From Azolla caroliniana (Eukaryota; Plantae; Polypodiophyta): 64,000 nt of DNA. This document shows positions 2,849 to 31,050 of this stretch, piece by piece. The stretch lies in assembly GCA_043228905.1 (NCBI GenBank), contig JBHGNT010000008.1:19964001-20028000 (forward strand), written 5' to 3'. Both the position numbers and the translations under genes were made by a program. Position 1 is the stretch's first letter. Each line of letters begins with the position of its first letter. A model generated the notes under the pieces. The model did not search any database. It was not told where the DNA came from and was given only the letters and a program-made list of their open reading frames with translations.

Positions 2849-3719
2849 CACTATGTACAGAATCACACACATTTAAAACAAGTATATCTACTTTGTTGTA
2901 CATTATGATTTATAGTGCTTATAACTTTATGGGTCGAAGCATGCTACGGTGTACCAACTTTTGGCCAAAAATTTAGTACTAAATCGAAGAAGAAAATAAA
3001 CATTAAAAATTGTAAATAAATTTCAAAAAACAAAAAACAAATTCATTACGTCACACTCAAATGCACAAAGATATTATACGTCACACTCGAAATGTCCCTA
3101 GCCATATTTAATACATTAATTGTTGCCCCAGTCTCCTAGGTAGAGTTGTACGAAAGCACACCTGGAGAAGGTATCCATTGTGATAGTTGGTCAGTCTCAA
3201 TATCTCTCTCTCTCTCTCTCTCTGGTATGGGTAGTCGAACGTGTCAATTGGTATGTCTCTCTCTCTCACTCACTCACTCACTCACTCTCTCTCTCTCTCC
3301 TGTCTCGAAGTTGTCAGACAGACAGTGGCAGAAAGTTAAAGAAAGACGACATATCTATCACAAGTCTATCTCTCTCTTTCTCTCTCTCACTCCACCTTCG
3401 AAGCTCTGTTTCTTTCTTTCTTTCTGTTTCTCTCTCTCACTCCACCTTCGATTCTCTGTTTCCCCGCGTAGTTGTTCTTGTGTTCCCCTCTGTGCCAGGT
3501 TCGATCTCTGAACTCTGTATACACAGAGATTTTTGTTTCCCCTGCTCGTTGTATGTGTTGTTGATTTTCCTTCCTTGTGTATGCTCGTTTGTCTCCTCTG
3601 CAGCAGCCTCGTCAACAACCTCTTGCATATAGGTGATTTTGAAGGCTTGGTGTGCTCCCAAGGTGTCGAAATCAACACGGTGTGGTACCTCTGCAAGTTG
3701 TACGACCTCTAGGTATTCT

Positions 3720-4270
3720 CTTTGTTGCATGCCCAACTGGTATGTTTTCTTTTTCTAAATGTTTCCTGTCTGTCTGTTTTTTATTTGCATGTGTATGGCC
3801 ATTTTTAGGGTTTGATTATTCATAGTCTATGTGTTGCATGCCCAACTGGTATGTTTTTGTTTTCTCTGTGTTTCTGTGTTTCTTTTAAAAATGTATGACA
3901 ATATTTTGATCGAGGTGGTTGTGTGTTAGACATGTTTGTACATGCAACATAAATGGAGTTGGCTATGATGAGTTGCTATGTTTTCGTTTTGTTCTTGTTT
4001 CCTGTCCATCTGTTTTATTTTGTGTGAGTTTGACATGGATGAGTGTTTTTCCGACTATTTTGGGTTTTTGTGTGTTTGACATGGCTTGTACATGCGATGT
4101 GATGGAGTTGGCTATGATGATTTACAATGTTTTCGTTTTCTTTGACTTTTGTATCCGTCTGTTTTTATTGTCTGTGTATTTGACATGGATGAGTTTTTTT
4201 CCGACTATTTAGGGTTATTGTGTGTTTGACATGGTTTGTACATGCAATGTGATGATTTGCTATGTGTTGA
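3720..4270 (+). repeat. Degenerate tandem repeats in the presumed 5' intron of the Sola accessory gene
   Basis: GTTGCATGCCCAACTGGTATGTTTT twice; GTGTGTTTGACATGG.TTGTACATGC-like unit three times at ~150-bp spacing. Confidence 0.6.
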
Positions 4271-4338
4271 TCGTAATTGCTTGAGTTTTCTTCTAGTACA
4301 TGCATATTCATTCCCTGATAATTGTGTTGACTAGGACA

Positions 4339-7300
4339 ATGACGAGAAGGACACCCATAAAGAAGACATTGATGAAAGAGAAAGTGAAGACACCAGTGAA
4401 GGAAGGAAGAAGGACACCCATGAAAGAAAGCAAGAAGACACCCACAAGAGAAAGGGTGATGAATTCATCAACACAGAGAAAGAAGATGTACCACTCCATC
4501 AGTCGAGACACACCTCTTGGATGGAATTATTTCCTTCGAGCACGACCTGACGTTTATCCAGAGCTGAGAGAGTGGTTGTTAAAAACCTGGGGGTCAGCAC
4601 ATCCCGACACAAGGCGAGGATTCCACATAAGTGGTTTGAAGAGGGAATACATGAATTTATTGAAGACGAGATACGAACATGTTTATGATACAAATCAAAT
4701 CACTAACAATGAGGTGGGTACTGTTTTTGCACGTGCTTTTGCATGTGAAGTTCAAGGTGGCATTGACGTAAATTGGGAAGATTTTAATCGGCACCGGTCA
4801 GAACATTACAAAGGGTCCTCCAGTACCAACACTGGCTTGAAGTCATCTGGAACCTCTCATGTGGATATTCTAGCTATAACACCTATCCACCAAGTTCTAG
4901 AGGCAAAGGTACGGGCCACAATGACTGAAAAGCATGAACAAATGATGGCCGGTTGCATAGCTTCTATGAGCTCAAGAATACAAACACTACTTGCTGATTT
5001 GGAAGCAGTTAAATCAGCTGAGATACAGGCAGAAAAGAAATTTTCTTCAATAAAAACTACATATGAATGGATTGCATCGACAATCCAAAATTCGGAAAGT
5101 GAGGTGTTGAAAGAGGAGTTGAAGAAAGAGCTGAACAATATGGGCACTCAATTAGGTTCACAGATAAGAGACCTTGATACTTGCAGGAATGCACATGAAG
5201 AAATAGATAATAAGTTGTCAGCCTTAAAGTTGCATTCTGAGAACCTTGCATGCTTGATGCAGGATTTAAAACAAAATGGTTTTGATACTTTGTGTCCATC
5301 TGTAATTGAGCACCCAAGTGGTATAGAAAGTACCATTATTAGTATAGCTATATCACGGTATTGGCTTTAAAAGTTATTTATTTCTACTTCTCTGGTATAA
5401 ATAAGCGAGCAGCTAATATATTATAACTTGTGTTTGCAATCTTCCAGGTGTATATTTTGTGGCCTCGGATTCAAGTTGGAGGCTATGGATGTTGTGATTA
5501 CACCATGCTTGCACACATATCATGTGTTATGTGCTAAGTATCATTTTGAGAAAGAGAATACATGTATGGACTGTAAAACTACAATTGTGGCTGAGTGGTA
5601 CTATGCTTGGGGTTTAAAAGTACACCCATACGGTATGTGGCTCTACTATTCTATTGTTTGTATTATATGATGTCAATTAACATTTGGACTAGAACTAGTG
5701 TATGCCACAATTCATACTTCAAATTTAGTGTAATCTCTAACAACTATTATGTGGAACCCTAATTATGTGGGTTAGTATTGGCAGTACTCTTAATATATAA
5801 TTGGTATGTGTAGTTGAAGGGATATTTTCCAGAATTAGTAGTACTAAAAGGGAACCAGGTACAACATCGTCCAATCTATATTGCAACTTGCCTAGTATTA
5901 GTTTAGTAAACACTATACTTATAGTACACTGTTGACTGTTAGTATTGTTTGTGTAACTTGGGAATTAGTACTAGTAATGTAATTTGGGAACAAGGTGTAT
6001 AGTAAATTGCTGAATAATAGTACAATTATTGTAATTTGGAAATGAGGTGTGTCAAACACATATCACGTTTAGTACTAATATTGTTCAAGATTAATACTGT
6101 TGGTGTAATTAGTACAAGTTATGTAACTAGGTGTGTAGAACACATATCATGTTTAGTATTGCTTGTGTGCAAAATACCAATCTACATTTGTTGGATTAGT
6201 ACTTAGTAAGTACTACATGGTTCATGATTAGTACTAGTTCTGTACTTTGTGAACTAAGTTACTAGTACATTGCTCATGATTAATACTAGTTTTGTAATTT
6301 GGGAACTGAGTAGTACTTTGTTCCTTATTAGTACTAGTTTTGTACCTTATTAGTACTAGATCAGTAATCTAGAAAATAAGTGAGTAGTACATTTTGTAGG
6401 ATTAGTACTAATTGTGTAATTTGACTAAGTCAGTGGTACATTGTTGGTATAGTACATTGTTCAGGATTAGTACTAATTGTGTAATTTGACTAAGTCAGTG
6501 GTACATTGTTCGGGATTAGTACTCCTTGTGTAATTTGCTAACTAAGTGAGTAGTATATTGTGCATGATTAGTACTACTTGTGTAAATTGGGAACTAAGTG
6601 AGCATTACATTGTTCGGGATTAGTACTCCTTGTGTAATTTGGTAACTAAGTGAGTAGTATATTGTGCATGATTAGTACTACTTGTGTAAATTGGGAACTA
6701 AGTGAGCAGTACATTGTTCGGGATTAGTACTCCTTGTGTAATTTGGTAACTAAGTGAGTAGTATATTGTGCATGATTAGTACTACTTGTGTAAATTGGGA
6801 ACTAAGTGAGCATTACATTGTTCGAGATTAGTACTCCTTGTGTAATTTGGTAACTAAGTGAGTAGTATATTGTGCATGATTAGTACTACTTGTAAATTGG
6901 GAACTAAGTGAGCAGTACATTGTTCGGGATTAGTACTAGTTCAGTGATTTAGGAAATAAGTGAGTAGTACATTGTTCAAGATTAGTACTACTTATTAATT
7001 TGACTAAGTCAGTGGTACATTTTTCAGGATTAGTACTTGTGTAATTTGGTAACTAAGTGAGTAGTATATTGTGCATGATTAGTACTACTTGTGTATATTG
7101 TGCATGATTAGTACTAATCGTGTAAATTGGGAAGTAAGTGAGCAGTACAGTGTTCCTTATTAGTACTAGTTCAATAATTTAGGAACTATGTGAGTAGTAC
7201 ATTGTTCATGATTGGTACATTGTGTAAAATGGGAAGCAGCTCTTGTGACCTACATTATATATTTTAGATGATGGTACTAACATTCAAGGTTTTTTTGTTT

Positions 7301-9058
7301 CTTGCAATGAATGTTGTAGTGTCAAGCAACTCCACGCCAGGGAAGGTAATGGAACAACCAGCCCTTGTGCCTAAACCCTCAATATCTGTTGCACATTCCA
7401 AGGTTCAGGGACCATCATTACCAATAACCTATGATTTTTATGATGAGGATGAATGTATGAGAAGGGCCATTGGAGCAGTGGAACATATGCTTCTACAAAC
7501 AAATTTCCCAAGCTCCGGTCAACATCAAGAAATAGAGCCCAATAAGAAGAGAAATGCAGTTTCTTTACAAATAGAGCCCAGTAAGAAGAGAAATGCTGCA
7601 AGAATGTTGTATGGAAACGGCAAGAAAGGCAAAGTTGAATGCAATGGTGAGTCATATAAGTTCTCACCTGTCTGGAGCATTGTCAACCTAATCCATTGTC
7701 TAATACCATGTACTTGTGTTACTAGCTGATGATGAAATGATATTTGGTGACGGAGATACGAGTCCAAAACCTGATCATGAAGACGAATTTATCACACTCC
7801 CAGGTACACGTCAAAAGCTAGACTTTGAAAACAATGATTTAGCTCATAACAACCCTATTTTTGTTGTTATTATAGATCATAACAACATTGTTGAGCACCT
7901 AGATGTTGTGGAGAAGATGACCGAGCCCACCACTTGCAATGGGGTATCTACGGCTGTACAATATGACGATGTAATATTAGGTAAAAATGTGGCCCTAAAC
8001 CCTATGTTCATTGTTTGCAAACTTTTGAGTATGTGAGTTGATACCAATATTCTTTGGAATCCCATTAATTAGGTTTACAAGAGCAGTCTGATTCCCAAGT
8101 GCAATCAAATGAATCGGGAACTTCATGGAGCACAAGTGCAGAGTCAGATTCCCATCAGAGTCAGAATCAAATTAACCTTTGCAAGGAGGCAGACTCTGGA
8201 AGCACATCTTCCACACATGAGGATTGTGAGAAAAACGAAGCATTCATATGTGAAGAGCAATTGGCATGTACAAACAACACTATGTCTAAAGAAGCCTATG
8301 AGTGTGGAAAGAATATGGCAAGTACTGAAGAGAAGATTGAAGCCCATGAAGAGTGTGGAAAGAATATGGCAAGTACTGAAGAGAAGATTGAGGCCCATGA
8401 AGAGTGTGGAAAGAATATGGCAAGTACTGAAGAGAAGACTGATTGTACTGATAATGTGCTAGTACTGTCTAAAGATTCCCATGAGGATCATGGAAAGAAC
8501 ATTGCTAGTAATGAAGAGGATCGTGGAAAGAACATCGCTTTCCCTGAAGATAAGCCTGATTGTACAGAATCCCATGAGGAGTGTAGAGCGAACAACGTTA
8601 CTAATGAAGGTGGGCCTGATTGTACTCAGAGCGAAAAACGTTGTCTTAAGAATGAGGTGACATCCACCGTACAAGAGGAGTTGACCATGACTACTGCCAC
8701 GGTCCACATACAGGAGTCTAATAAGAACGAGTGTATAGGCATCGGTGATGATGATAGGGCAATAAAGATCGCTAGGAGTACAAGCATTCAGGAGATGAGT
8801 GATAATTTGCCTATCGACAGCACCTTTGTGGATTTGTGTACAAGCATTGCAGTTGCAGAAAACATAGTTGCTCTCTCAAGCTTGCCACCAGTACAAGGTG
8901 CCCGCGCATCCACGCCTGTCTCTGATGCCTCTGATGATGAAGTGCCACTTAGTCAGCTCATACCTAAAGGCTTTAAGATAAAGAAGAATGTAAAATTAGA
9001 AAAATCTGGCACCAACAAGCGCATTACAAGATCGTCCAAGTTACCCTCTAGTGCCTGA
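4339..9058 (+). CDS. Transposon-borne five-exon gene: coiled-coil + RING-H2 zinc finger + long acidic tail (~923 aa)
   Basis: Predicted exons 4339-5357, 5448-5632, 7320-7646, 7726-7980, 8073-9058. All introns GT-AG and phase-compatible (2,1,1,1); 2772 nt with no internal stop. Exon 2 encodes C-x2-C-x15-C-x-H-x2-H-x2-C-x10-C-x2-C. Confidence 0.75.
5950..7220 (+). repeat. AGTACT-rich intronic minisatellite (52-bp monomer, 104-bp dimer)
   Basis: ACTAAGTGAG recurs at 6541, 6593, 6645, 6697, 6749 and 6801 with alternating variants; monomers carry GATTAGTACT; the array decays on both sides. Confidence 0.9.
8298..8440 (+). repeat. 51-bp coding tandem repeat (ECGKNMASTEEKIEAHE, ~3 copies)
   Basis: Direct repeats visible in the DNA and in ORF 8099-9058; frame-preserving. 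Confidence 0.9.
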
Positions 9059-10112
9059 TTGTCTTTCGATTGTACTTGAACTTTAGTTGTTAGTGATGTC
9101 TGAAATTGAACTATTTGGATACCAAAATATTGTTTCAATTGCCAATGTAAAAAATCCAGTTCATGAATCTGAAATAGTTATACCAGTGTGAAATCAAGTT
9201 CATGTTTAAGGATTGCTTCTGTATTTTGCTCGTCAACATATATAAAAAACAATGGGAATATACTTTTTGATCTAAGTATTCTTATTTTACAACGTTTTGT
9301 TTCTTTTTTGAGATCATCTCCTAATCCTCGCAAAGTCTTTCAATCTATTATAGATAAAATGCTTGAAAGTCTTCTTAGCCAGAATGTGTGCAAATTGGAG
9401 GGTAACCAGAATGTGTGCAAATTGTTGAAGCAATGTGGGCCATATTTTGATGATATGATCCCAAAGGATGAACCATCCACTAACAATAGTAAGGAAACAC
9501 TTACCTTTTTGAGCTATCACAAATTATTGTTTCAGAAGTTGGATTATTTTGTTAAGGAAAGGAAGGTCTGTAATTTAAAATCCATAGCCTGGATATTCAG
9601 GACTTATATACAAGAAGTTAAAACTCAGATGGCTTCACAGGACATATCATGAAACAAAAAAGGATTCTGAGAGAATAATTTTCATTGTTGTCTTCACAGA
9701 ATTCATCGCCCCCTTTGAAGAATGAACTTACAGTAGAAAATCTTACAATATTAAAGTCTTTAATGAATTCAACTAACAATCTTCTCTTGGTAGCAAAAGA
9801 AGAGCAGATTTATGTGCCAACAGAGGACACACCAACTCTTATACAATATTTTTACTCATTTTAACATGGCTCTGCAAAACTCCTATGCTCAAATAACATC
9901 AAGAAACATGAGCAATATCGGCAATGAAGAAATCCAAGTCCTATTGACAACAGCTAATATATTATGAAAGATAAGTACAAGTGGTTGAGAGGCATAAACA
10001 CTTTGGAAGAAAGACGAAATATATCAATTCATTTGTCAATCATCAAAATTAATAGTGAACTCCAAGTGGATGTTTTTCAGTTTTCTGGTACAATGTATTG
10101 ATAGGGTGACTT

Positions 10113-13100
10113 TCAAGCATTAAATAGAGAGACCTCCCCTAATATGTGCTCATGAACCTCTTGGGGGACCTTGTAGACAGTGTTGTATCCCTTAACCTTG
10201 TGCTTTGCTTGAGTCATATTGAATTTGATCGCAAGAATGGCATCAGCGTAGATTATTGCGATGGGTGCTTCTTTTAGTAATGCATATGTGTTCTTGCACT
10301 GCGGCAACTTTGCATAATAGTTTCCATACACGATAGACTCACCAACGTTGAAATTGTTGCCCCAACCATCCCTCACCACTTCTTTCAATAATGTCTTTCC
10401 TTGCTTGCACACCACAATGTAGTAGTCTTCTAAATCTTCATTCTGAGGATATTTGAGCACTGCAAAATGATCTCCAACTTCCAATAAAACTGCCAAGTCT
10501 TGATTTTGGTTGTAGTATACAATATCGTTTGAATGCACATCCTCTTCAATATCATCTTGTCGTTCAAGCTCAAGCTTCTGTAGCTTCCAGGGCTCCAAGA
10601 TTGATAGGTTGATGCATTTATCCCAAGCTTCATCTAGACACATGGAACAAAAGCATGATAAACTACGGAGTAACAATTGGGTTGTGTCCTTGCGGCTAAA
10701 CCCTAACACACAATGGGTGCTGCGTGTGCCTTTCACGGTTTTACAACCATATGATTTAGTTATATATCGACCTCATCAGCGCGAACTTCAACAAACAATC
10801 TGTTCTTACCATCATTTGACATCTTCCATGTTAGCCACTGCACAACATCATGTGCATTTTGTAACTTAGCGCCATTATTATCCAACTACTCACTTGTAAG
10901 GGCACGTTTGATCACAGCCCCCGCGCCATCATGCTCTCCTTTTCCATGTCCAGACCCGAAGTAATTCCATTGCATGCGAATATTGAATAAGGAGAAATAC
11001 CTGCTTTGGTATCTCAGGTTTCCAACAAAATTAGTACTATGTTGTCAATTGAGAGTACTACACTTCCATTAATACTGATTTAGTACAAATACAAAACAAA
11101 GCATAGCACAATGTATCCATTGAGAACACTCTACACTTATTAAAAGATAAATAGTACTATGTTGTCGACCAACAGTACCTGGCATCCATTTAATACTAAC
11201 TTAGTATGGATATAGCACAAAGTATAGTACAATGAGTTCATGGAAAGCACTCTACATGTATTAACAAATAAATAGTACAAAATGTTCAATATCGGATAGT
11301 ACAATACAATGTGTCCATGGAGAACACAACCCTCCTTAGAAGATCATTAGTACTACAAGACATGTACTTTACATCCCCCAATAAACACTGATTTAGTATA
11401 GATACAACACATAGTACAATACAGTGTGTTCATGGAGAACGCTGAACATTGATTAATAGATAATCAGTACCACACAGTGTGTTTAAAAGATGAGTACAAG
11501 ATGAGTACAATACTATGAGTACAACATGAGTAAATACTGATTTAGTACAATTCTCTTAAGGACGGACAATACTATGAGTACAAGATGAGTACTTTACATC
11601 ATCCTATAAACACAACATAGTACAGATACAACACACAACATAGTACAATGTGTCTATGGAGAACCCTTCACATGGATTAAAACATAATTAGTACAATTCT
11701 CTTAAGGACGGACAATAATATAAGTACAAGATGAGTACTTTACATCATTTTGTAAACACAACATAGTATAGAACCAACACACAACATAGTACAATGTGTC
11801 TATGGAGAACACTTCACATGGATAAAAAGATAATTAGTACAATTCTCTTAAGGACGGACAATACTATGAGTACAAGATGAGTACTTTACATCCTTCTGTA
11901 AACACAACATAGTACAATGTGTCTATGGAGAACACTTCACGTGGATTAAAAGTTACTTAGTACAACATAATACAAACAAAATTAGTATGCATGCATCCAT
12001 TCACAAGTGCAAGATTCGAATAGTTACAAACATAATTAGTATGCATCCATGTGAATAGTATTGTTTGTTAATAGTTACAAACATAATTAGTATGCATCCA
12101 CTAACACAAGAATTACTTCCTTACACATTGCATGATAAGTACTAAACATATGGATTAAAAATTACCTGGCGATAAAGTAGAACGATCGTGCTGCCTTAAA
12201 CTGTGAGGCAGCACCATCAGACCAAACCCAATGACGGTTAAAGGTTAACCCTAGAGAAAATAAATCTGCATGGTGAAGCTTAAAACAATGTTGAACAAAT
12301 AGTGTATCATGCTTTTTATCATCTGAAATGTAAAATATTGATTTCTTATGTAACTCATCGTCTTGCCTCCAAATAGCAAATATGTACAAGTATTGTACAT
12401 TGATCATTGTACCAATGCATTGATTGAACCTCATTTTGAACTTTAAATGTATAGTTTTCTGCAAAATCAATAACGGATACGATGACACCCGTTGGTAAGT
12501 TATTAATACATTCCTTGAACTGTGAATTTTGCCAATAACTCCGAAAGTTATGTGGAATAAACTCCCCAAGTTGTTTATTAAATTCTGAGACAAGGGTAGC
12601 AACACATGTCTCCTTATATACTTCCTTGATACGCTTAGTTACAACTCCCTTGCCAATATTTTCAGTCACATACTCCAAATATTTCCATTTCACGATATGA
12701 CTATTTCCCATATCAAGCTCCTGCCTACAAAATAATGGTAGCGGACAAACCTTACATGTTCTTAATAGACATGTACGACGATGCCACTCACATGATGGTT
12801 CTTTTTCACAAACACAAGACCTCCATAGCTCAGAAACGGATGCATAAGTCATGTTTCGTGCATTACACCTATTATCCTCCCCATTTGGTCTACAAATCTC
12901 ACAAGTGCAGACACATAATTTCCCGTGTATACCCTTAGAATCAGTACGCATTGCATTCACTGCTAGCCTTAACATGTCCATCTTCACATGGTACACACAA
13001 CAACATGTATTCCTCTCATTTAATTTACTAACATAAAATGGTTTCAAACCTTGGAACTTGCGGAATCCAACAGTCAAGCTTGGATGTTGGTCTTTAAAGT

Positions 13101-13832
13101 TCATGTACAATTCAGCCTACATCAACCAATATATATAACAAACATTAATATACACTTGGTCAAAACACAAAGTTATGGAATGTGAATTGATATAAAAAAA
13201 TGGAATACCTCTGTCATCTCCAAGAAGTGTCTAGGGTGAATCTGGTACTTACCCTGACTTATTCGTTGTCTACACACGTCCTTCTTATTTGGTGAGACAC
13301 GCGTATTTTTGGCCCAAAATGAATCCACTTTCTCAATAATCTATTGAGATAAGGCATCACATCGTCGTCTACGTCCCGACCCCAGCCACTTGAATTTGCT
13401 TGAGTGTATATTTCGGCGATGTTTCCTCAAGTTCCTTCTTTGAATACCCAGGGCTAAGGCAACTTTAGTATCACTATATTTTTTTTCTCTCGCACCGTTC
13501 ACAACCATGTGTAGGGCTGCCCTCTTTGCAGCAAGTTTGTCTAAGCTCTCTACACCTTTCACTAAGTCTAGGGATGACTTCATAGACTCCACAATCTCTT
13601 CTGAAACACATTGGTCCCTAAATTTTATTCTCTCCATGTCTTCATTCAAACTTTGATGGTGTAACACTCTACAAATAATATCCCTACGATCCTCTTCACT
13701 AAATCTCTTCGTTATTTCTACCAAATAAACTATGTGAAGAACCAGTCGTCTCTTGTTCCTTTCAGATATGCATGAGTTACTTGACAACTCACTCTCGTTA
13801 GGAACCCCCATTCGGTCACTAGATTTATCCAC
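10113..13832 (-). pseudogene. Sola2-type DDD transposase, spliced, disabled
   Basis: Exons ~13832-13209, 13116-12166, 11000-10113 with GT-AG introns. Motifs SPNKKD, CCCVYH, VIDFAENY, QSMHW, ISDDKKHD, WSDGAASQFK, FGSGHGKGEHDGAGA, C-terminal SCFCSMC. In-frame TAG stops near 13341 and 10886; frameshifts near 12372 and ~10780. Confidence 0.88.
11030..12150. repeat. AGTAC-rich intronic repeats with a 146-bp tandem core
   Basis: TTAGTACAATTCTCTTAAGGACGGACAATA at 11542, 11688 and 11834; AGTAC is dense throughout intron 11001-12165. Confidence 0.85.
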
Positions 13833-16384
13833 AAAAATTAAGTGTCTTGCGAAAGTAGTTAATGTTATATAGACTCAACCAAGAAAACACAATCAAATGT
13901 TTTTAAATGTGGCCTGCAAAGTGAGAAATATTTTGTTTCAAACATTAGAATTACATATCAAATATGACAAATGTCAATTCTAAAAATTTAGTACTGAAAT
14001 ATGAAGAAATGAAACATTTTAGTACTGAAAATAAAAAAATGGATGGAAGGAACCTCCAATGGTGGAGGGAGCGTTGGATATGCCGCCTCGATTTGGTAGA
14101 AGGAACCTCCAATGCCGCCTCGATTTGGTGGAAAAAGCCCCAAATCACCACGACATCAACTGCAATCAGTGGAAGTAAGAAAGTCGTTGTCGAAGAAGTG
14201 ACTATTGGCTGCTACCTAAACCCTCAAAACAGTCTTTGTACCTCAACCTAAACCTAACAAAAACAGAAACCCTAAAAAAATCAGAAATCCTCAACTCAAA
14301 CTCTCCAACCAGACATGGATGTCTGAGATTTAGATTGAAGGAGAATCAGAAACGTGACATGGATGTTTGTCATGAAAAGCTCAGAGGGATAGAGGAAGAG
14401 CAGTATGAGGGGAAGCGCCAAAATCGACGTGAGGGGAAAATAGCCCCCAAAATGGAAGAACATCTCCTCACGTGTTCCCCCCACTCCTTCTACAATAAAT
14501 GACACTTGTACTACAGTCACCCCACTCTCCAAAATCGATTTCCTTTTTCTCTAATTTTTTTTCTGGATTATTCAGTACTAACAGTATTGAAAGTACTGAC
14601 AAATTTTGTGGCCAAAAACAGTACTTTTCTGGTACACCGTAGCGTGCTTTGACCCTTATATGCAAGAATTATACATCTATGTATCGAAATATTTTAAAAC
14701 CCACTTACAAGCACTTTTGTTTTTACACCACTCGTATAAAGGTGAGTGGTTTTCCCTACCACATGGTAAGCACACCACTCAAAAGTAATCCCCTTAAAAT
14801 TGATTGACCTCCACACAATTGGAGTTAGACTGTAGACTAAAGCAATTGACAAAAGGGCAACTTTGTATTTCCATGGTGCCAAGAGGGCTCAAGAGAGAAT
14901 TGTTTATTGTTGCAGTTGATCATTATATATGGAGGGGCTTGGGCTTCTAACTAGCCTAAGCTATGTGGCTAACTATGGGAAATTTTATGTGGAGGCTAAA
15001 TGTTATTGAAAAATTATTATGTTAGCTCAATATCATGTAATTGTTTTAGTGTTTGTTACCAATATGGAACATTGTCTATCTTCAGTCCTTCGAGATAGAC
15101 CTCAAGGGGATTGTGTGGCAAGGTATGACACCACACGAGGCGTGAGCCGTTATCTGTCAGTTATGTAATAATGTGTATCTATGGGTGAAGGTTCACGACT
15201 ACGATCGAGAACTTGAGTGCGCTACTACGCTGACTCTTACCCTACGCTGACACTTACGAATAGCACAAAGATTACACAAGACAGCACGGGTTGCACAGAC
15301 ACAAAGAATCAAAGAAGATAAGATTCTATTAGAAAAAAAAACCTCACGCTCCAAAATTACACGCTACCTCTTACAGAGGATTTCTGCCCTTTATATACAC
15401 AGGGCGTTCAGCCGGTCACGCTTCTCGCGTGAACCGTTACATCTATTTCCTTAACGGTTCTAATACATTTTTCATATTTCACGCATTTATGTCCGGCGGT
15501 TACAATTCTGGTGGACAACATCTGGCACGCCTGGGGAACAGTTTTGAGCTTCTTCCAAGGTTTTCGTGAGTTTTTTGATTTCTCACTTATTAACCCTAGC
15601 CGCTTCCTCACTTATCTTTGCCCATATCTGGGATTCTTTCACATGTAGTTCCTCTAGCCGGCCCATTTCATTGTTCATGTGGACTTCTACTTGATGCGTC
15701 ACCTCGCGTTCTTGTACGAGCTGCTCATCGTACCACGCTTTCTTCTTTTCCAATAACTCTCGGAGTCTGGTGAGATTGTCGCTTCCGACTTTTGGGTTTC
15801 CTTCAGTAGCTTCTTGTTTTCTTCTTTCATGCTGGTGTGCGATGTCATGAAGATTTTCGGCAACAGTATGAGAATTGTGTGCAACGAACGAAATCGAGAA
15901 GGTGCAATGTGGACATGTGAAAGGGGTGAAGGCCACACGCATATGCTAGCATGTTGTAAATAGGATTGAAATGAGAATCGTAAAAGAAAAGCTAGATGAA
16001 AAGTTAAACATGTGCACATGTGATGTGCGCTCAATTGTAAATATAAAATTAAAACTAAAGCCTAGTAACATCTAAGTGCATACATAGGGTGGACGCTAGG
16101 CTTGAACCTTGCACCTCCAAGATAGGAGACAAATTAAGTTACCACTAAAGCCACTAATGAGTGCTTTAAAATTTGTATTTTTTTTTTTCATATTCAGTAT
16201 TTTGTAGGAAGCAAACATATAGAAACCGTGGGCGCAAAACCATGGTTCTAGCTCGTGGGTTTAACCCATGGTTTTTGCATGGAGAGACCTATAAATGCCT
16301 ATAGTTGGGCTTGTGTAAGAGGGAAGTGGTGTAAGTAAGAAAGAAACTTTTAATCAAAGATCTGAGTTCTCCTAATGGTGATTT

Positions 16385-17102
16385 TGTTGAGAACTTGACG
16401 TTCCTTATGTCCCACGCTCGGCGGCAACCGAGATTCTTTACATACACAGAAAAACAGGTAATTAAACGCGACACAAAAGAGGAGAAATGATACACAGGAG
16501 GTATACGTGGAAAACCCCAAAATAGGGGAAAAACCACGGCAGCCCACAAGCTGCAAACTGTCACTATGTAGGAATATACAACAGTGAGATCACTGAGGCA
16601 ACGACCTCGTGCTCTCAGATCTTCGCCACAAGCGGCGGTTACAACAGAGGCAACGACCTCGTCTCTCTCTTTCTCTCTCTCTCTCTCTCTGCACAGTTAC
16701 GTGCTCTGACTTCTTCTTGCACCAACAAGAAATAATAACCACACAAAAACAACAACACTACAAAATTGCCCTAAGTCATATTTATACTAATATGACTTTT
16801 CAGCTATTTACAAATGTAGCCTCGATGGGCTCCATCCGACTCTCCGTAGTCGGGTACTCCCCATCCGGCTCTCCGCAGTCGGGTACTCCTCATCCGGTTC
16901 ATACCGGGCCTACACCATCCGACTCTCCGCAGTCGGGTACTCCTCATCCGGTTCATACCGGGCCTACACCATCCGACTCTCCGCAGTCGGGTACTCCCCA
17001 TCCGGTTCATACCGGTTCGGCCTCGGCCTGTCGGCCTCGGCCGAGTTTGTTCGTCGGCACCGTTCTTCTACCTTCCCATCCGGAGGGACCTGTTTCCCAA
17101 CA
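16385..17102 (-). mobile_element. Solo LTR, copia family C-related (718 bp)
   Basis: TG..CA ends and GATTT TSD (16380-16384, 17103-17107). Empty site at ~31945-31952. Shares GTCCCTCCGGATGGG and TATAAATATGACTTAGGGCAA with the 22128 LTR; contains three 57-bp repeats. Confidence 0.93.
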
Positions 17103-17152
17103 GATTTATCTTGTCTCGTAAAACTAAAGTCAAGGGTTCAATCTCAATCTCA

Positions 17153-17155
<3 letters not shown>

Positions 17156-17230
<75 letters not shown>

Positions 17231-17231
17231 C
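17156..17231. repeat. (CT)n microsatellite
   Basis: Direct reading. Confidence 0.95.
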
Positions 17232-18067
17232 TCATCTATCTATCTATCTTCAATACTTTCTCGCTTACATTGCTAAAAACATCGAATCCTTCTGGTCTAG
17301 GATCCCGGTGGTCCCGCTTCATTTCGCGAACACAGGAGGATTTCCTCGACGTCTTACTTGGTGAACCTGACATGAAAGAGGCGGTAGGAAGGATCCAGTC
17401 GAGGATCGACCGATACTTGCAAATGGCATCCTCAAGTAATCAAGTGGGAGAATTCGAAAGGATGATGCTAATCATCGAACTTACCCATTCATCAAAAGTA
17501 AAATAAAAATAAAAAAATATGATAAAAAATAGAGTTTTAAGCTAAATAGTTCTAGTAAAATAACAAAGATGTTCTATATAAACAACATGGTCTACAATGA
17601 AAATGATGTTATACTAGGCCTAATTTCATTTCCATCAAGTCTTTCGAAGAGAAGCGGGAGGTCAAAGGGTTTCGATGTGGATGTGGCCCGTGGTCCCAAT
17701 GTAAAAATTACCCCAACCATAGCATCTAGTCGACGTAGCTCACGTTCCCTTATCTTCTTAATCTTTTGTAGTCCGTGTCGACTGGTTTTGAAGCCCAACA
17801 TCCGAGGACGTTTGGTTGTTCTTTGCATTTTGGCTTCCTCAAGAGATAGGTTGAGCGACGTAATTGTATCCATATTTATCGTCTCCCCTTGTTCCTGAAA
17901 AATTATACTAGTTACAAGTTGATGAATAGTAAAAGGGTTATGGTTAACACTTTGTAATTTATTCTCCCTATGTTGTTTTAGCTCTAAGATATATCTAGCT
18001 AGTCACTAGACATCTGGGGTATCTAATAGTTTGGAGAGGGTCGTAACATGTCTTGGTATTACGCCCG

Positions 18068-18090
18068 GAGAGAGAGAGAGAGAGAGAGAG

Positions 18091-18149
<59 letters not shown>

Positions 18150-18170
18150 AAGACAGAGAGAGAGAGAGAG
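18068..18170. repeat. Compound (GA)n(GT)n microsatellite
   Basis: Direct reading. Confidence 0.95.
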
Positions 18171-18286
18171 AATTGAAAGGAAAGTATTATATTGCACTGT
18201 AAGATAGATTACAAAGAGTAGGGAGCAGAGAGCTATAGAATGACGTTGAACTAATTTGGTTTTGGGATGATTGATAGATCCCTATT

Positions 18287-18710
18287 TGTTGAGCGGCAAG
18301 CTCAATTGGAGCCAAATCGGTTGAATAAGCCTGACCCGATGAGTGACACGGATCGGTGAGCCGATGAGCACCAAGTGAGCAAAAGAGCCGGTGAGTTAGG
18401 GAGCCGGTTAGCCGGATCCATCAGTAACCGGAAGCCTGGTAGCAGCTAGACTACTAGGGAGTTAATACTCTCGTAGTTAGTGTCAGACGCTCGAGTGAGC
18501 ATTGAAGTACACCGTACTTCTGTCAGTCCGTATGGACTTGTATAAAAGTGTTCGTTGAACACTTACGATCTACAGAGTGTTGATATAATTTTTGAATAGA
18601 GATTCTTGTTCTCTCTCTCTATCTCTCTGTCTCTCCTGTGTACTGTTAAGTTCTCCATTAAACCCTTTTCTCTGTTCTCTGTTCTTTGTTTTCTGTTATT
18701 TGTTTTTACA
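18287..18710 (+). repeat. copia B 5' LTR (inverted duplicate of 30416-30845)
   Basis: TGTTGAGCGG..TGTTTTTACA, preceded by CTATT (reverse complement of AATAG) and followed by a PBS variant. Confidence 0.92.
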
Positions 18711-19332
18711 TAGTATCAGACTTGTGTTTTTACGATGTGTTTAGTGAACACTTTTATACAAGTCCATACGGACTGACAGAAGTACGGTGTACTTCAATGC
18801 TCACTCGGGCGTCTGACACTAACTACGAGAGTATTAACTCCCTAGTAGTGTAGCTGCTACCAGGCTTCCGGTTACTGATGGATCCGGCTAACCGGCTCCC
18901 TAACTCACCGGCTCTTTTGCTCACTTGGTGCTCATCGGCTTATCGATCCGTCTCACTCACCGGCTCAGGCTTATTCAACCGATCTGGCTCCAATTGAGCT
19001 TGCCGCTTCCGCACGCTATTTGTTTTTACATGGTCTCAGAGTTGTGTTTTTACGATGTGTTTAGTGAACACTTTTATACAAGTCCATACGGACTGACAGA
19101 AGTACGGTGTACTTCAATGCTCACTCGGGCGTCTGACACTAACTACAAGAGTAATAACTCCCTAGTAGTCTAGCTACTACTAGGATTCCGGTTACTGATG
19201 GATCCGGCTCACCAGCTCGCCAGCTCACCGACTCTTTTGCTCACCGGGTGCTCACCGGCTCGATGATCCGTCTCGGTCACCGGCTCAGGCTTATTCAGCC
19301 GATCCGGCTCCAATTGAGCTTGCCGCTCAACA

Positions 19333-22127
19333 AGGCGGATCGGCCCCATGGGCATGGTTGACGAGGCGGGTCAGCACGCAATGGAGACGGCCGGCAAGGA
19401 CAAGACTGACGGCACAGAGACCGCGTACACAACAGCTCCAGGACTTCCACAAGCAGGGGTAGTCAAGGTGGAGCCGGAGGTTGGCAAGACAAAGCCGCCA
19501 CGGAATGCTGGTATTGTGGCAAAAAGGGCCACACAGAAATCAAGTGCTGGAAGAAGCGCGCCGATTCGGATAGATCTGGATCCGGAAAAACCGGTCAGGA
19601 GAACTAACAAAGCTCGCATTACACGCAAGGATCAAAAGGATCCGGAACCAGGAAGACCGGTAAGGGGCCATCCTTGGTGATGAAGCACAAGGCAAACTTG
19701 ATGAACAAGACCACTTCCAAATCGGAGGAAGTGTGGTACGTTGATTCTGGTGCGTCAAATCACATGATGAGCCACAAAGAGTGGTTCTCTTTCTTGGAGA
19801 AACCGGAACAACCGGGAGTTGTCGAAACTGGAGACGACACTCCTCACCCAATTGTGCATGTCAGAGAAGTTCCCCTGAGCAACATCGGACAGAGGGGGAA
19901 GCTGATGAACGTATTACACATTTCGACTATCACGAAGAACCTGGTGTTGGTCGGACAGATCTTCGATCAGGGAATGCAGGTGCGGGTTACGCACCTTGGG
20001 TGTTTCATCGAGGAGGAGGGCCAGACTATCGCGCAAGGGTGCAGAGATGGGAGGATGTTCATCCTCGACACCAATGACGTCAGCACCACCTTGTTCGCCA
20101 AAGGACAGAAGGTCGAATCGGACATCGACCTGTGGCACAAGCGGATCGGCCATGTCAATTACCGATAGCTTCAAGACTTGCAAACGAAACAAGTTGTTTT
20201 CGGTTTGCCGAAGTTTAGTGGCCGGAAGGCCCAAGTATGTGATACCGGCCAACTTGGGAAGCAACAACGGCTTACATTCCCCGCCGAATGAAACCGTAGC
20301 CGTAACAAGCTCGACCTTATTCATTGGGATGTATGGGGACCGGCACAGAAAGTGAGTCTTGGCGGGAGTTGATACTTGAGCGGAAGAGCCAAGTCTTCGA
20401 CTGTTTCCGGAACCTCCAAAGCATGGTGGAATGGGAATCAGAGAGGAAGATCAAGTGCCTGCGGTCAGATGGCGGAAAAGAATATTTTTCTGGCCAATTA
20501 AACAGTTATCTGCAGCAAACAAGAATCCGGAGAGAGTTCAGCTGCAGATACACACCTGAGCAAAACGGTGTGGCGGAAAGGAAGAATCGGTCGCTTGTCA
20601 ACGTGGCAAGGGCAATGCTAGAAGAGAAGAGCATGCCCCATTTCTACTGGGCAGAGGTGGTCCGGATGACCGTCTACATCCAAAACCGGATCGGTGACAA
20701 GGTGTCCGCGCATGAGCTGTATTTCGGGCGCAAGCCAAATTTGAGACACCTTCGGATTTTCGGCAGCATAGCATATGTGCATGTGCCGGATGAGAAGCGG
20801 AAGAAGCTGGATGCAAAATCGGAGAAGTGCATCCTCGTCGGCTACTCACATGAGCAAAAGGGGTATAAGTGTTATAATCCCCAGACGAAGCAGGTCCGAG
20901 TTTGTTGCGATGTTGAGTTTGATGAGATGGCATCATGGTATGCCTTACCAGCTCCGACTTCTGACCCCGACCCGATACCGGAAGATGAGGCTAGTGAACC
21001 TGAACCGGAACAGTTAGAAGATGATGAATTTGGGACTCAAGAAGAGAATCCGGAATAGTTTCGGTCGAGTGGGCCGAACGAGAGACTGGGTCAATCCGAC
21101 CAGTCAGAAGAAGAACCAGTGAGTAGTGAAGACTGTGCGGTGCTCTCCCTGCACAAGGAATCAAGGAGAGGGTTCACGTGCAAAGCGAAGGGGAAGAAGA
21201 AGATGCCGGATTATGAAACCGGTAATGATGAGTCGGATTAGAGCGGATCTAACTCCGGACAGGAAAATGAAGAATTTTCGACACTGAAGACAGAACCGGC
21301 CAAGAAGGGCCTCAAACCGGGTAATGGTGGGTTACGCCGGTCAACCCGCCAGAAGGAACCTGTTAAGCGGTACGGGTACAATGAGTACATGGCGCATCAC
21401 TATGCGTACATGACCAAGGTGGCGGAAGTGCGTGAGCCGGAGAGCTACGCAGAAGCGGCAAAGGATGCACATTGGCATGCCGTTATGGAAGAAGAGATGC
21501 GGGCACTTCATGCCAACGATACATGGAACCTGGTTGACCCTCCCCGTTACAATAAACTGATCAGATGCAAGTGGGTGTACAAGGTAAAGTACAACGCCGA
21601 CGGTTCAGTTAACCGATACAAGGCCCGGTTAGTGGCAAAGGGATACGCACAGACCCACGGAATCGACTACGACGAGACCTTCACTCAGGTAGGGAAGATG
21701 ATGACGGTTTGTGTGGTGCTGGCGGTTGCAGCGGCAAGGGGCTGGCATCTTCACCAAATGGATGTGAAGAATGCATTTCTTCAAGGAGATCTTGAAGAAG
21801 AGGTCTTTATGATACAACCCCCCAGTTTCCAGACGGAGATGAACAAGTCGACGGTATGGCGGCTAAAGAAGTCACTTTATGGCCTGAAGCAAGCCCCCCA
21901 AGCTTGGAATGCGAAGATCACGCACCGGTTGCGTAAGATGGGGTTTGCGGCCTCCAAGTCTGACTCTTCGTTGTTCATCTGGCAAGGTCTGGACGGTCCG
22001 GTTTGCATCTTGTTGTACGTTGATGATCAGGTCATCACCGGACCCAGACTCGATGAAATCAGCCGAGTCAAGTCCCAGTTGTCGGATGCGTTTGAGATGA
22101 AGGACCTGCGGGACCTTGACTATTTCC
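19333..22127 (+). pseudogene. copia B gag C-terminus/protease/integrase/RT N-terminus, degenerate
   Basis: Zinc knuckle CWYCGKKGH, WYVDSGAS, LWHKRIGH, LRSDGGKEY, PEQNGVAER, YKARLVAKG, LLYVDD; several stops and frameshifts. Confidence 0.92.
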
Positions 22128-22896
22128 TGTTGGGATTTCGGTCCCTCCGGATGGGATGTCCGGAGATGAATGACGGCAAGCCCGGTTGCGGTTACGGAAC
22201 CGGATGATGAAGAGTACCCGGCATGAAGCCGGATAAAGAGTACCCGGATACGGAGCCGGATGATGAAGACCCCGGTTACGGAGCCGGATGATGAAGACCC
22301 CGGTTACGGAGCCGGATGCTGAAGACCCCGGTTACGGAGCCGGATGATGAAGACCCCGGTTACGGAGCCGGATGATGAAGACCCCGGTTACGGAGCCGGA
22401 TGCTGAAGACCCCGGTTACGGAGCCGGATGACGAATGTACCCGGAGAGAGATCCGGATGCGGGGACATATTTGTGAATATGTTTGCCAAGAGCCCTTGAG
22501 GCTATATTTGTAAATAGCCCAAAAGTCATATGTGTATAAATATGACTTAGGGCAAACAGTCTTATGTTGTTGCTCATTTTCTGTTTTCCACGAAGAGGGA
22601 GCGAAGTGAGAGCAGCCGAGAGAGTGTGAGAGACGAAGAGGTCGTTGCCTCAGTGTATTACCGCCGCCTGTGGCGAAGACTGTGAGCTCAAGGTTGTTGC
22701 CTTGTAGCTTCATCATTGTACATCTCTGCATATAGTGATAGTTGGAGTTTGAGGACTCCCGTGGTTTTTCCCACTTAGGGTTTTCCACGTAAAATATCCT
22801 GTGCACTCTTCTCCCCATTATCTTCGTGTATTTGTAATTCCTGTTTTCTGAAAGTTAATCCTATTTCTCGGTTGTGGCCGAGCACTGCGTATAACA
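22128..22896 (+). repeat. 5' LTR with a 28-bp tandem array (ACGGAGCCGGATGATGAAGACCCCGGTT, ~6 copies)
   Basis: TGTTG..TAACA ends, TATAAATA near 22535, array ~22248-22430. Confidence 0.96.
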
Positions 22897-22899
22897 AAT

Positions 22900-22911
22900 T
22901 GGTATCAGAGC
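22900..22911 (+). promoter_or_regulatory. Primer-binding site (initiator tRNA-Met)
   Basis: TGGTATCAGAGC 3 nt after the 5' LTR. Confidence 0.95.
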
Positions 22912-22927
22912 GACGGTAACACAGAAA

Positions 22928-25900
22928 ATGGAAGGCGGCGGTAGTGGGCCTCCTGGCATGATGGTGTTGAACTCACAGAACTACGCCGACTGGAAGATAA
23001 AGATGGAAGACCTTCTCATCGTCCGAGACCTATACAAACCGATCGACAATGCCGAGATACCCAAGGGGGTAATAGAGTCGGAGTGGAAGCTCCTGAACCG
23101 GAAAGCCGTAGCGACGATCCGGCAATATGTCGATGTAAGTGTCCTGCAACATGTGGCGAACGATACGAACGCCTATGAGATGTGGAAGAAGCTGTCGGGC
23201 CTCTATGAGAGGAAGAATGCGTTGAACCGGACCTCCCTGATGAGGAAGATAGTGAACCTCAAGTACCGGGACGGCGAGAGTATGGTGGAACACGTAAGCA
23301 CGTTCATGGGATTCGTGAACCAGCTTGCGGCGATCAAATTCCCGTTGGAGGATGCAATGCAAGCCATCATCCTGATGTGTACATTGCCGGACAGCTGGGA
23401 GAACTTGGTGGTGACTCTCAGCACCTCCTGCACCGAAGATAACTTGTCCCTACAAACGGTAAAGACAAGTATTTTGAACGAAGAAGCGCGTCGGAGAGAT
23501 AAAGAACCGGTTTCTGATCAGAAGATGCTGCTTACCGAATCGGATCGGGGAAGACAATGGAACCGGAGTCCGCAAAGACGGGAGAAGTCGGGGACCCGGT
23601 CGCAGTCAAGAGGAAGGCCAACATGCTTCCACTGTGGGAAGCCGGGGCACTTCCGGAAGAATTGTCGGCACTACCGAAAGGACAACGGAGCCGACGACAC
23701 CGATTCGAAGAAGTCACCGGAGAGAAACGGTGCATACCGGGGAGCCACGGACCGGAGAGGTCCGGATCGGCGAGGGCAGGACCGGAAAGGAACGACGGCA
23801 CTTGCGGCAAGTGAAGAAGAGATAATGCTTATTACCGAAGAGAAGGAGCTGAACCTTGCCGGTGTAGAGATGACCTGGGTGGTCGATTCCGGAGCGTCGT
23901 TCCACCTGACCCCGGAGAAGAAATACTTCTCATCCTACACAGCCGGTGAGCACGGCTGTGTCCGGATGGGAAATGAAGGCACATGCCGGATTGCCGGCAT
24001 AGGAGACGTGTGGCTGTTGACATCAACCGGATGCAAGATGCTGTTGAAGGATGTGCGACACGTTCCGGAGGTCCGATTGAACCTGATCTCGGCCGGGAGG
24101 CTAGATGATGAAGGCTACACGGGTAGCATCCGGAACGGTGTCATGAAGTTCAGCAAGGGGAGCCTGATAGTGGCTCGGGCCCGGAAGGTCAACACCCTGT
24201 ACCTGATGAATTCCCGGCTATGTCCGGAGGAGCTGAACGTGGCAGCCGACACTGCCGGTGAGCTGTGGCACAAGAGACTGTGCCACATGAGTGAGAAGGG
24301 GATGAAGAGGCTTGCAGAAGACAACCTCATTCCAGTGAAGCATGTGCATCTGGAGAAGTGCACCGATTGCCTGGCCGGTAAGCAGAACCGAACCTCCTTC
24401 CACTCAAGGCCACCGACGAGACGTAGCGCACCATTGGAGTTGGTGCACACTGATGTGTGTCAGGTAGAAACGAAGTCACATGGCGGAGCCCAGTACTTCG
24501 TGACTTTCATTGATGATCACAGCCGGAAGCTGTGGACGGCGCCGTTGAAGACAAAGGACCAAGTGTTGTCCGTCTTCAAAGAACTCCACGCGAGAGTGGA
24601 AAGAGAATCCGGCAAGAAGTTGAAAGCGATACGAGCGGATAACGGAGGGGAATACCGGGGGCAGTTCCAGGAGTACTGTCGCTCGAAGGGAATCCGGCTC
24701 GAGTTTACTGTGCCGAAGACGCCGGAACTAAACGGGCTGGCCGAGAGGATGAACCGGACCATAATGGAGAGGGTCCGGAGTATGCTGGAACATGCGAAAT
24801 TACCCAAGGGGTTTTGGGCTGAGGCAATGTCGACGGCGACATACGTGATAAACAGATCACCCTCAGTACCTTTGGATGGAGACACGCCGCAGAAAGTGTG
24901 GACCGGTAAGGAAGTGTCCTACCGGCATCTGAAGGTGTTCGGGTGTCTCGCATACGTGCATGTGGCAAAGGACCGGAGAGGAAAGCTAGATCCAAAGACC
25001 CGGCCATGCATATTCCTCGGTTACGGCGACGACGAGTTCGGCTACCGAGTATGGGACCCGGTCGACAAGAAGATATTCAGGAGTCGAGACATCATCTTCA
25101 TGGAGGACAAGACACTCGCCGACTGGGAGTCGGAGAAGAAGATGAAGAGCTCCAAGTCGATCGGTGAGGATCAACTCTACGAGGAGCAGTCCCGACCGGC
25201 AAGGGACCGGTTAACACTCGAGGAACCGGCCGAAGAAGATGAAAATGATACCGGAACCGGCCCCGATCCCGAAATGGATTCGGATGAAGAAGAATCGGAA
25301 GAACCGGTTACCGAAGCTCCGGAACGGAGATATCCTCTAAGAGAGAGAAGGGCCCCCCGGAGATTTCCGGAACCAGAGCACGTGCTGCTAACCGACGAAG
25401 GGGAGCCGGAGAGCTTTGAAGAAGCAAAGCATGACACCCAGAGCCGCAGGTGGTTGAGTGCCATGCAGGACGAGATGGATTCCCTGCATGAGAACCACAC
25501 ATATGAACTTGTGGAGTTGCCGAAAGGAAAGCGGGCACTTCGAAACAAGTGGGTGTTCAAGCTGAAACCGGGAGATGCCGGAAACCCCCCGAGATACAAA
25601 GCCAGGATCGTGGTGAAGGGGTTTCAGCAGAAGAAGGGCGTCGACTTCGACGAGATATTCGCCCCGGTAGTGAAGATGACCTCCATCCGGACGGTGCTGA
25701 GCATAGCGGCAAGCATGGACCTCGAGGTAGAACAGATGGACGTGAAGACAGCATTCCTTCACGGTGACCTCGAAGAAGAAATCTACATGCAGCAACCGGA
25801 AGGATTCGATAAGAAAGGGAAGGAGCACCTGGTATGCCGATTGAAGAAAAGCCTGTACGGATTGAAGCAGGCTCCCCGGCAATGGTACCGGAAGTTCGAC

Positions 25901-26974: not shown

Positions 26975-26982
26975 AGGGGGAG
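26973..26982 (+). promoter_or_regulatory. Polypurine tract
   Basis: GAAGGGGGAG just before the 3' LTR. Confidence 0.92.
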
Positions 26983-26984
26983 TT

Positions 26985-27753
26985 TGTTGGGATTTCGGTC
27001 CCTCCGGATGGGATGTCCGGAGATGAATGACGGCAAGCCCGGTTGCGGTTACGGAACCGGATGATGAAGAGTACCCGGCATGAAGCCGGATAAAGAGTAC
27101 CCGGATACGGAGCCGGATGATGAAGACCCCGGTTACGGAGCCGGATGATGAAGACCCCGGTTACGGAGCCGGATGCTGAAGACCCCGGTTACGGAGCCGG
27201 ATGATGAAGACCCCGGTTACGGAGCCGGATGATGAAGACCCCGGTTACGGAGCCGGATGCTGAAGACCCCGGTTACGGAGCCGGATGACGAATGTACCCG
27301 GAGAGAGATCCGGATGCGGGGACATATTTGTGAATATGTTTGCCAAGAGCCCTTGAGGCTATATTTGTAAATAGCCCAAAAGTCATATGTGTATAAATAT
27401 GACTTAGGGCAAACAGTCTTATGTTGTTGCTCATTTTCTGTTTTCCACGAAGAGGGAGCGAAGTGAGAGCAGCCGAGAGAGTGTGAGAGACGAAGAGGTC
27501 GTTGCCTCAGTGTATTACCGCCGCCTGTGGCGAAGACTGTGAGCTCAAGGTTGTTGCCTTGTAGCTTCATCATTGTACATCTCTGCATATAGTGATAGTT
27601 GGAGTTTGAGGACTCCCGTGGTTTTTCCCACTTAGGGTTTTCCACGTAAAATATCCTGTGCACTCTTCTCCCCATTATCTTCGTGTATTTGTAATTCCTG
27701 TTTTCTGAAAGTTAATCCTATTTCTCGGTTGTGGCCGAGCACTGCGTATAACA
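26985..27753 (+). repeat. 3' LTR of the intact copia
   Basis: Direct copy of 22128-22896 at offset 4857. Confidence 0.96.
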
Positions 27754-29677: not shown

Positions 29678-30113
29678 CGCCTCCGTGTACAGCATCCGGT
29701 TGTCAGTGGGTGCACTTGTTGACGCACCGACATGGTTCTCCTCTACAAGAAGCATCGACTGTAAGTCGAAAAATGACGGCATATTCTCCCTCGTACATAC
29801 TGTTGTCCGGAAAGCTCGGAACTTAGACGCCAGGCCCCCAAGACAAACCTGTACCAACTCGTCTTCCTCTACCGTGACGTTGATAGAGGCAAGCGAGTCG
29901 CAGATCTCTTTGATTCGGGCCGTGTAATCAGCCACCGACATGTCCTTCTGTCCGACATTGCTCAACTCCTGTCAGAGTTGCAGCTTCCGGGATGTAGTGC
30001 TTGCGGTGAGCTGTTGTCTACGCGGTCTCTGTGCCGTCAGTCTTGTCCTTGTCGGCCGCCTCCATTACGTGCTGACCCGCCTCGTCAACCATGCCCATGG
30101 GGCCGATCCGCCT
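29678..30113 (-). pseudogene. Two copia B gag fragments in permuted order
   Basis: 29678-30007 encodes ..ADYTARIKEICDSL..MLYTEA; 30008-30113 encodes the downstream DRPHG.. part. The contiguous homolog lies at ~61020-61400. Confidence 0.85.
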
Positions 30114-30391: not shown

Positions 30392-30404
30392 CGTAAAAAC
30401 ACAA

Positions 30405-30845: not shown

Positions 30846-31005
30846 AATAGGGATCTATCAATCATCCCAAAACCAAATTAGTTCAACGTCATTCTATAGC
30901 TCTCTGCTCCCTACTCTTTGTAATCTATCTTACAGTGCAATATAATACTTTCCTTTCACTTCTCTCTCTCTCTCTCGCTCATTAACACTCTCTCTCTGTC
31001 TTTAA

Positions 31006-31050
<45 letters not shown>

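Follow-up and report, generated by a model that had tools for sequence, protein, structure and literature searches.

A conserved RING-bearing accessory gene in a Sola2 DNA transposon of Azolla caroliniana, with motif arrays in its own introns

Why should a transposon whose transposase is dead carry beside it an intact gene for a long multidomain protein, and what might that protein do for the element? The question is posed by a 64,000-nucleotide stretch of the Azolla caroliniana genome (assembly GCA_043228905.1, contig JBHGNT010000008.1, positions 19,964,001 to 20,028,000 of the forward strand; hereafter the window), in which an 11.7-kb Sola2 DNA transposon (2931-14655) houses an accessory gene and a transposase gene on opposite strands. 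Judged from its sequence and those of its relatives, the accessory protein is transposon-encoded and under purifying selection at the level of the family; its gene would be a standing second gene of a Sola2 family, likely a fern one. The reading of its function that we tentatively put forward, with a likelihood somewhat short of even, is that the protein binds arrays of the motif TAGTAC in the introns of its own element, alters chromatin there, and keeps the family transcribed and mobile.

The initial annotation had assembled the accessory gene from five plus-strand exons (4339-5357, 5448-5632, 7320-7646, 7726-7980 and 8073-9058), and these do join at GT-AG borders into 923 codons with a single terminal stop. 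The open frame stands, but the exon count does not, since relatives point to a sixth exon and a protein of 899 residues. At each of the related loci L001, L004 and L005, similarity to the window breaks off at the GT donor that corresponds to 7804, and a frame continued past it runs into a stop codon; the segment 7804-7875, which had been read through, is therefore most likely an intron between a fourth exon (7726-7803) and a fifth (7876-7980, inferred from relatives). Exon 1 encodes basic T-P-x-K/R repeats (residues 1-51), a Trp-containing domain (residues 52-161; hereafter the Trp domain) and a coiled coil (residues 197-313). Exon 2 encodes a RING-H2 of the C3H2C3 type, and exon 3 a conserved DEDECMR motif; paralogue RNA reads match exon 3 at 7443-7474, and 7518-7574 may be a further in-frame intron. 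The last exon (8073-9058) carries acidic repeats and a conserved basic C-terminal motif. Its acidic part at 8292-8626 consists of 51-bp tandem repeats; contigs of sequencing run X4 differ in length here, and the tail is therefore variable among near-identical copies. The frame is also open upstream of the ATG, at 4297-4338, where L001-L003, L005 and L006 share a short in-frame stretch, so that translation may begin, or a 5' exon may exist, farther upstream.

The gene has relatives. A search with exon 1 picked out, from 1286 candidates, 8 proteins that are 37-96% identical, and those that reach the exon end stop within a few residues of a common point. Twelve loci among 600 metagenome candidates encode relatives; those at 60-96% share the gene layout, and the exon layout is common to the window, L001, L004 and L005. 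L001 carries the whole accessory gene tail-to-tail with a transposase end, and in L005 the gene lies 1.2 kb inside a near-identical terminal repeat. An internal-deletion derivative, L008:3192-4788, has accessory intron 2 fused to the last transposase exon. For exon 1 the ratio of nonsynonymous to synonymous substitution rates (dN/dS) is 0.34-0.39 against six loci, which amount to about two subfamilies and are not independent, with an upper confidence limit of at most 0.54. The RING gives 0.17-0.21 against five loci and 0.38, with an interval reaching 1.24, against the decayed L008; the transposase end gives 0.15 against L001. In 14 of 15 locus pairs the upper confidence limit lies below 1, and dS between element families is 0.7-0.8.

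More distant kin were sought with a Trp-domain profile over 1.84 billion representative sequences, which yielded 15 matches. P0019 and P0022 were dropped as repetitive chance matches, and P0017 and P0020 were left out of the comparison. P0018 and P0021 have the Trp domain, coiled coil and RING in order within one frame; they are 23-25% identical to the window protein across exons 1 and 2 and align to it (hhalign 97.8%). The sole named homologue is a gene model of Adiantum nelumboides, MCO5596278.1. Full-length spliced homologues of 645-2000 residues were absent from 7988 candidates, which is weak evidence, and viral contigs gave none among 127 candidates.

Could the accessory gene be an ordinary host gene that was captured and now travels as a passenger? 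The lack of introns in P0018 and P0021 and the existence of the Adiantum homologue would fit such an origin, and the element does carry what looks like a capture. The plus-strand segment 9173-10090, between the accessory gene and the transposase, contains decayed reading frames, is absent from L001 and has no Pfam match. It is matched, at 90% identity or more, by reads of stranded poly(A) RNA, which run on into other flanks and contain extra sequence near 9379 and 9712; the segment is therefore probably a capture, with deletions, of a transcript from elsewhere. The accessory gene itself, however, has been held under purifying selection across a dS of 0.7-0.8 between element families, and the homology searches returned no named host family, the Adiantum model being a 159-residue "hypothetical protein" that covers only the N-terminal part. 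We consider host capture quite improbable, and the matches include no named ordinary host gene, one of the outcomes that would have told against a transposon-encoded protein.

The element itself is well delimited. A 26-bp terminal inverted repeat at 2931-2956 (plus strand), beginning with GGG, matches the right repeat at 14630-14655 (minus strand) at 24 of 26 positions by eye, and has a near-identical counterpart in L005. Both are flanked by a TTAT target-site duplication (2927-2930 and 14656-14659). The flank recurs in inverted orientation, and at 33650-33700 this second copy preserves the empty insertion site, with a single TTAT. Short terminal inverted repeats and an AT-rich 4-bp duplication are as in Sola2. 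Sola2 termini follow the form GRG. Both ends of this element read GGG, and so do the plant Sola rows of the catalogue in PMC12973397. Candidate CACTA ends at 2849 and 33748 were ruled out, as they lack a matching duplication. The transposase lies on the minus strand (10113-13874, exons at about 13874-13209, 13116-12166 and 11000-10113), and in translation its motifs around the catalytic Asp match the Sola2 alignment shown in PMC3627910. This comparison of motifs was made by eye, and Pfam gave no match to the transposase.

That the transposase is dead was already proposed in the initial annotation and holds: two stop codons interrupt it (13341-13343 and 10886-10888), as do two frameshifts (near 12371 and 10763), whose extra bases are absent from contigs of other copies. 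All four lesions fall in the 2501 nt of the transposase and none in the 2697 nt of the accessory gene (P = 0.054, post hoc), a contrast that might suggest domestication, with the host retaining the accessory gene while the transposase was lost. At about 1% divergence, however, only 0.9 stops would be expected in the accessory gene (probability of none, 0.40, ignoring indels), and its intactness beside a dead transposase is probably chance; this copy would simply be young and not yet hit. The insertion is indeed young, because the duplicate into which it went has arms that are 94-99% identical, and terminal repeats and target duplication are intact. Contigs of run X4 differ from this copy by 0.6-2.3%; against the near-identical ones, 35 of about 1980 nt differ in the accessory exons and 18 of about 1890 nt in the transposase, and the 15 accessory changes listed comprise 9 replacements and 6 silent ones. 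Few RNA reads are at least 99% alike to this copy. Exon 1 is broken at five of the 12 related loci, counting separately L007 and L008, which could be a single locus; a frameshift, which may stem from misassembly of a C run, is present in L001, and L004 carries a stop in its last exon. The 7 loci with intact exon 1 are high-coverage contigs and the 5 broken ones low-coverage contigs (Fisher P = 0.0013), although collapsed multi-copy contigs look intact through averaging. Instead of a single copy that has lost mobility and is constrained on its own, we find a multi-copy gene whose divergence is no lower than that of the transposase. Given the borderline contrast, the young insertion and the broken loci, domestication of this copy is unsupported and strikes us as highly improbable. 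Of the earlier suggestion that a transposon-encoded protein is under selection or being domesticated, what survives is selection at the family level, not selection on, or domestication of, this copy.

Transcription was looked at in three poly(A) RNA runs, about 12% of each. Reads over the accessory region are all sense-oriented, and nearly all of those over the transposase lie on the opposite strand. Seventeen reads in run X5 start at the acceptor of exon 2, and their upstream letters, when translated, correspond by eye to the last part of exon 1 in the paralogue P0006; intron 1 is therefore spliced in the P0006 family. Spliced transcripts are thus seen at one joint, in a paralogous family. 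The transposase intron 13117-13208 is spliced in seven X7 reads of a relative, and no joints of accessory introns 2-5 were found among the reads. Because most reads are less than 95% alike to the window copy and the runs may stem from a related species, they do not establish expression of this copy.

What might the protein do? Every part ascribed to it in the initial annotation was found again: basic repeats, Trp domain, coiled coil, RING-H2, acidic tail and C-terminal motif. The Trp domain (110 residues) is predicted with a mean local confidence score (pLDDT) of 90 and a template-modelling score (pTM) of 0.85 in the best model, from an alignment of 7 sequences and with the five models ranging from pLDDT 56 to 90. 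It matched nothing in Pfam, in the Protein Data Bank (PDB) or among viral structures: the best Z score among 48,161 chains was 3.3, and Foldseek gave no match at E 0.001 in the PDB and viral libraries. A missing structural match does not prove a new fold. An atlas search likewise returned nothing for the Trp domain, and for P0018 only RING clusters of a generic kind, under 0.9. PDB sequences searched by profile gave coiled-coil matches only (best E 0.002), and the model of the whole of exon 1 matched only generic coiled coils. The coiled coil is predicted as helices across residues 197-313 at a pLDDT of about 95. Four T-P-x-K/R repeats occupy the N terminus and return as S/T-P-x-K in the relatives at 37% identity; we take them to fit the consensus of cyclin-dependent kinases. 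The acidic tail has 76 Asp or Glu in 350 residues and is barely alignable, whereas L001, the one relative compared, conserves the C-terminal 40 residues. Their RITRS presumably resembles the arginine-anchor motifs of viral proteins. Such anchors engage H2A E61, D90 and E92 of the nucleosome acidic patch and are documented for viral nucleosome tethers (PMC9040877).

The RING is recognized by Pfam zf-RING_2 at E 4.5e-5 and 24.1 bits, under the cut-off of 27.3. Its C3H2C3 pattern and spacing are intact, with all eight ligands kept in the window and in L001-L005, and it aligns to the RINGs of Hrd1 and Arkadia. The helix Trp and the Pro after Cys7 matter for an active RING E3 ligase. As the initial annotation had pointed out, both are missing here: relative to the Hrd1 RING, Trp is replaced by His and Pro by Met. 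On the other side, P0018 keeps the Pro, and in the window RING Phe precedes Cys2 and the linchpin is Lys. PMC13061254 gives, as features of activity, a hydrophobic residue at the first of these positions and Arg or Lys at the second. Ligase activity is thus doubtful on present sequence evidence. One could nevertheless envision a ligase or pseudo-ligase that works purely at the protein level, the Trp domain binding a substrate (the transposase, say, or a factor of host defence), which the RING would mark for degradation, with no link to the motif arrays. Ligases commonly place a coiled coil and a RING after a substrate domain, and constraint on the protein is strongest in its RING, whose eight zinc ligands are kept in all six intact aligned sequences; the residue before Cys2, the linchpin and the Pro of P0018 point the same way. 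The loss of Trp and Pro in the window family speaks against it, and it would leave the conserved arrays and the basic tails unexplained. We regard it as unlikely.

Those arrays are made of the motif TAGTAC, of which 81 strand-counted matches lie in the element and 24 in the other 52 kb of the window; a Markov null for the element gives 7, with a maximum of 16 in 60 runs, although tandem duplication inflates the observed counts beyond such a null, and 21 of the 81 matches are the palindrome TAGTACTA counted twice. Seventy-two matches fall in two long introns: 51 in accessory intron 2 (5633-7319), which contains 52-bp tandem repeats, and 21 in the tandem repeats of the transposase intron at 11001-12165. 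The two arrays cannot be aligned with each other. In intron 2 of L001, L003, L004 and L005 there are 13-20 matches where about 1.3 are expected, and TAGTAC is among the commonest 6-mers of intron 2 in all five loci examined; intron 2 of L001 and that of L004 share only 20-bp matches with the window's. The recurrence of the motif in introns that cannot be aligned is a stronger point than the counts. In L001 the gap between the two genes (4721-5458) also holds 8 matches, and that of the window copy none.

An array of binding sites could also serve transposition itself. CACTA TnpA is a transposition cofactor. A comparable protein in maize is MURB, which binds the N terminus of MURA and is required for heritable insertion (PMC12973397). 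By analogy, the accessory protein would bind the transposase or the ends and steer integration or its timing, with the arrays as loading sites for the transpososome. The two-gene layout recalls MURA/MURB, TAGTAC copies lie close to both termini, and the basic C-terminal tail could tether the complex to nucleosomes. Against this, 72 of the 81 matches are intronic and lie 2.5-4.3 kb away from the nearest end, and the two genes vary independently in RNA (transposase mostly in X7, accessory gene mostly in X5), though in reads from paralogues. We see the cofactor as possible but doubtful.

It is tempting to favor, with the reservation already expressed, the chromatin reading, every step of which beyond the anatomy we infer. 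Trp domains paired by way of the coiled coil would read the palindrome; the protein would be held on chromatin by its basic tails at either end, and its T-P-x-K/R repeats may be cell-cycle phosphosites; and the RING would ubiquitinate a nearby silencing factor or histone, or serve as a non-catalytic partner. Selection would then work through amplification of the family. A number of observations weigh against this proposal. The Trp domain is charge-neutral (15 Lys or Arg, 14 Asp or Glu) and matched no known DNA-binding fold in the structure libraries searched. The window family has His and Met/Leu at the Trp and Pro positions of the RING. The inflation of the motif counts and the dependence among the dN/dS comparisons, both mentioned above, lessen what these can carry. 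TAGTAC copies also occur 43-80 bp in from the termini, so that the binder could be the transposase. Of the 12 loci, only two (L001 and L008) show linkage to a transposase and one (L005) to a terminal repeat. Finally, no Pfam family related to VANC, a protein encoded by VANDAL transposons of Arabidopsis, matched at E up to 1 in the Pfam scan. A bolder form of the proposal would have Sola2 transposons of seed-free plants evolve a sequence-specific anti-silencing enzyme, its DNA-binding domain of unmatched fold recognizing the element's TAGTAC arrays and joined to a RING ligase that writes ubiquitin on the element's own chromatin or on host silencers; this we hold to be conceivable, if rather speculative. 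Should anti-silencing prove wrong altogether, there would still be a conserved 110-residue Trp domain, confidently folded in prediction, without a family or structure match in the libraries searched.

The surroundings add some detail. The Sola2 element is inserted in a long inverted duplicate (2848-2930 plus 14658-19438 against 30008-33749) with a CACTATG end, which encloses several copia-type elements and is possibly a foldback element. One copia-type retrotransposon, at 22128-27284, has an open frame of 1359 residues (22895-26974) and terminal repeats that are identical over the 300 nt compared, and is therefore a very recent insertion.

How does the element compare with those already known? 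Azolla is reported to be rich in Sola elements (PMC6786969). With the Sola2 transposons aligned in PMC3627910 the window element shares, by eye, the motif order GF.KF..L.P, C.C.YH, DFAENY..Q.EVQS.HW, SDG.ASQ and W..F...HGK...DG.G..KR, together with the short terminal repeats and the AT-rich 4-bp target duplications reported for Sola2 there. It differs in its 11.7-kb length, its second, RING-bearing gene and its intronic motif arrays; the second genes of Sola2 described in the same paper are Fanzor1. Closer in size are the 10- to 11-kb Sola elements listed for mosses and for the fern Cibotium in four rows of Table S2 in PMC12973397, the only rows of that file to name Sola; they have a 4-bp duplication and 26- to 32-bp repeats starting with GGG; the terminal repeat of Ceratodon cluster_4006 closely resembles that of the window element by eye. 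These catalogue rows describe no accessory gene, and the RING rows of Table S6, among those listed, belong to MULE, CACTA and hAT elements. Sola1-1_Ec32 of Ectocarpus is likewise a large Sola with an accessory gene opposite the transposase strand and a proposed self-modification, but it is a Sola1, and the accessory protein is an unrelated ParB-methyltransferase (PMC12477816). Chapaev transposases and RAG1 also bear a transposon-borne RING, an active ligase in RAG1; there it is fused to the transposase, whereas here it lies in a separate gene (PMC4411706). Accessory genes in large Sola elements and RINGs fused to transposases are thus already on record. No account of a separate Trp-domain/coiled-coil/RING gene in Sola2 was found in a literature search that covered neither Repbase Reports nor the founding Sola paper, and the accessory protein family is real and probably undescribed.

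A further parallel is with VANDAL elements and their anti-silencing VANC proteins, which bring about hypomethylation at specific sequences. VANC, too, is element-encoded, with conserved and tandem-repeat variable parts, and binds short motifs that build up as tandem repeats in the introns of its own element (PMC5735166). Our element shows the same multiplication of a short motif in non-coding tandem repeats, but it is a Sola2 and not a Mutator-like VANDAL; its protein contains a RING and showed no homology to VANC in the Pfam scan, and one motif is common to divergent families. Sequence-specific anti-silencing by transposons is established in few systems, and how silencing is removed after binding was, as the same source puts it, an open question in 2017. 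A protein in which a RING is coupled to a candidate motif-binding domain, encoded by a Sola2 element, would offer a directly testable mechanism and, if it does bind the motif, could help explain the persistence of DNA transposons in large fern genomes. Were the enzymatic version correct, the Trp-domain/RING protein would represent a second origin of the VANC strategy, with the catalytic part built in.

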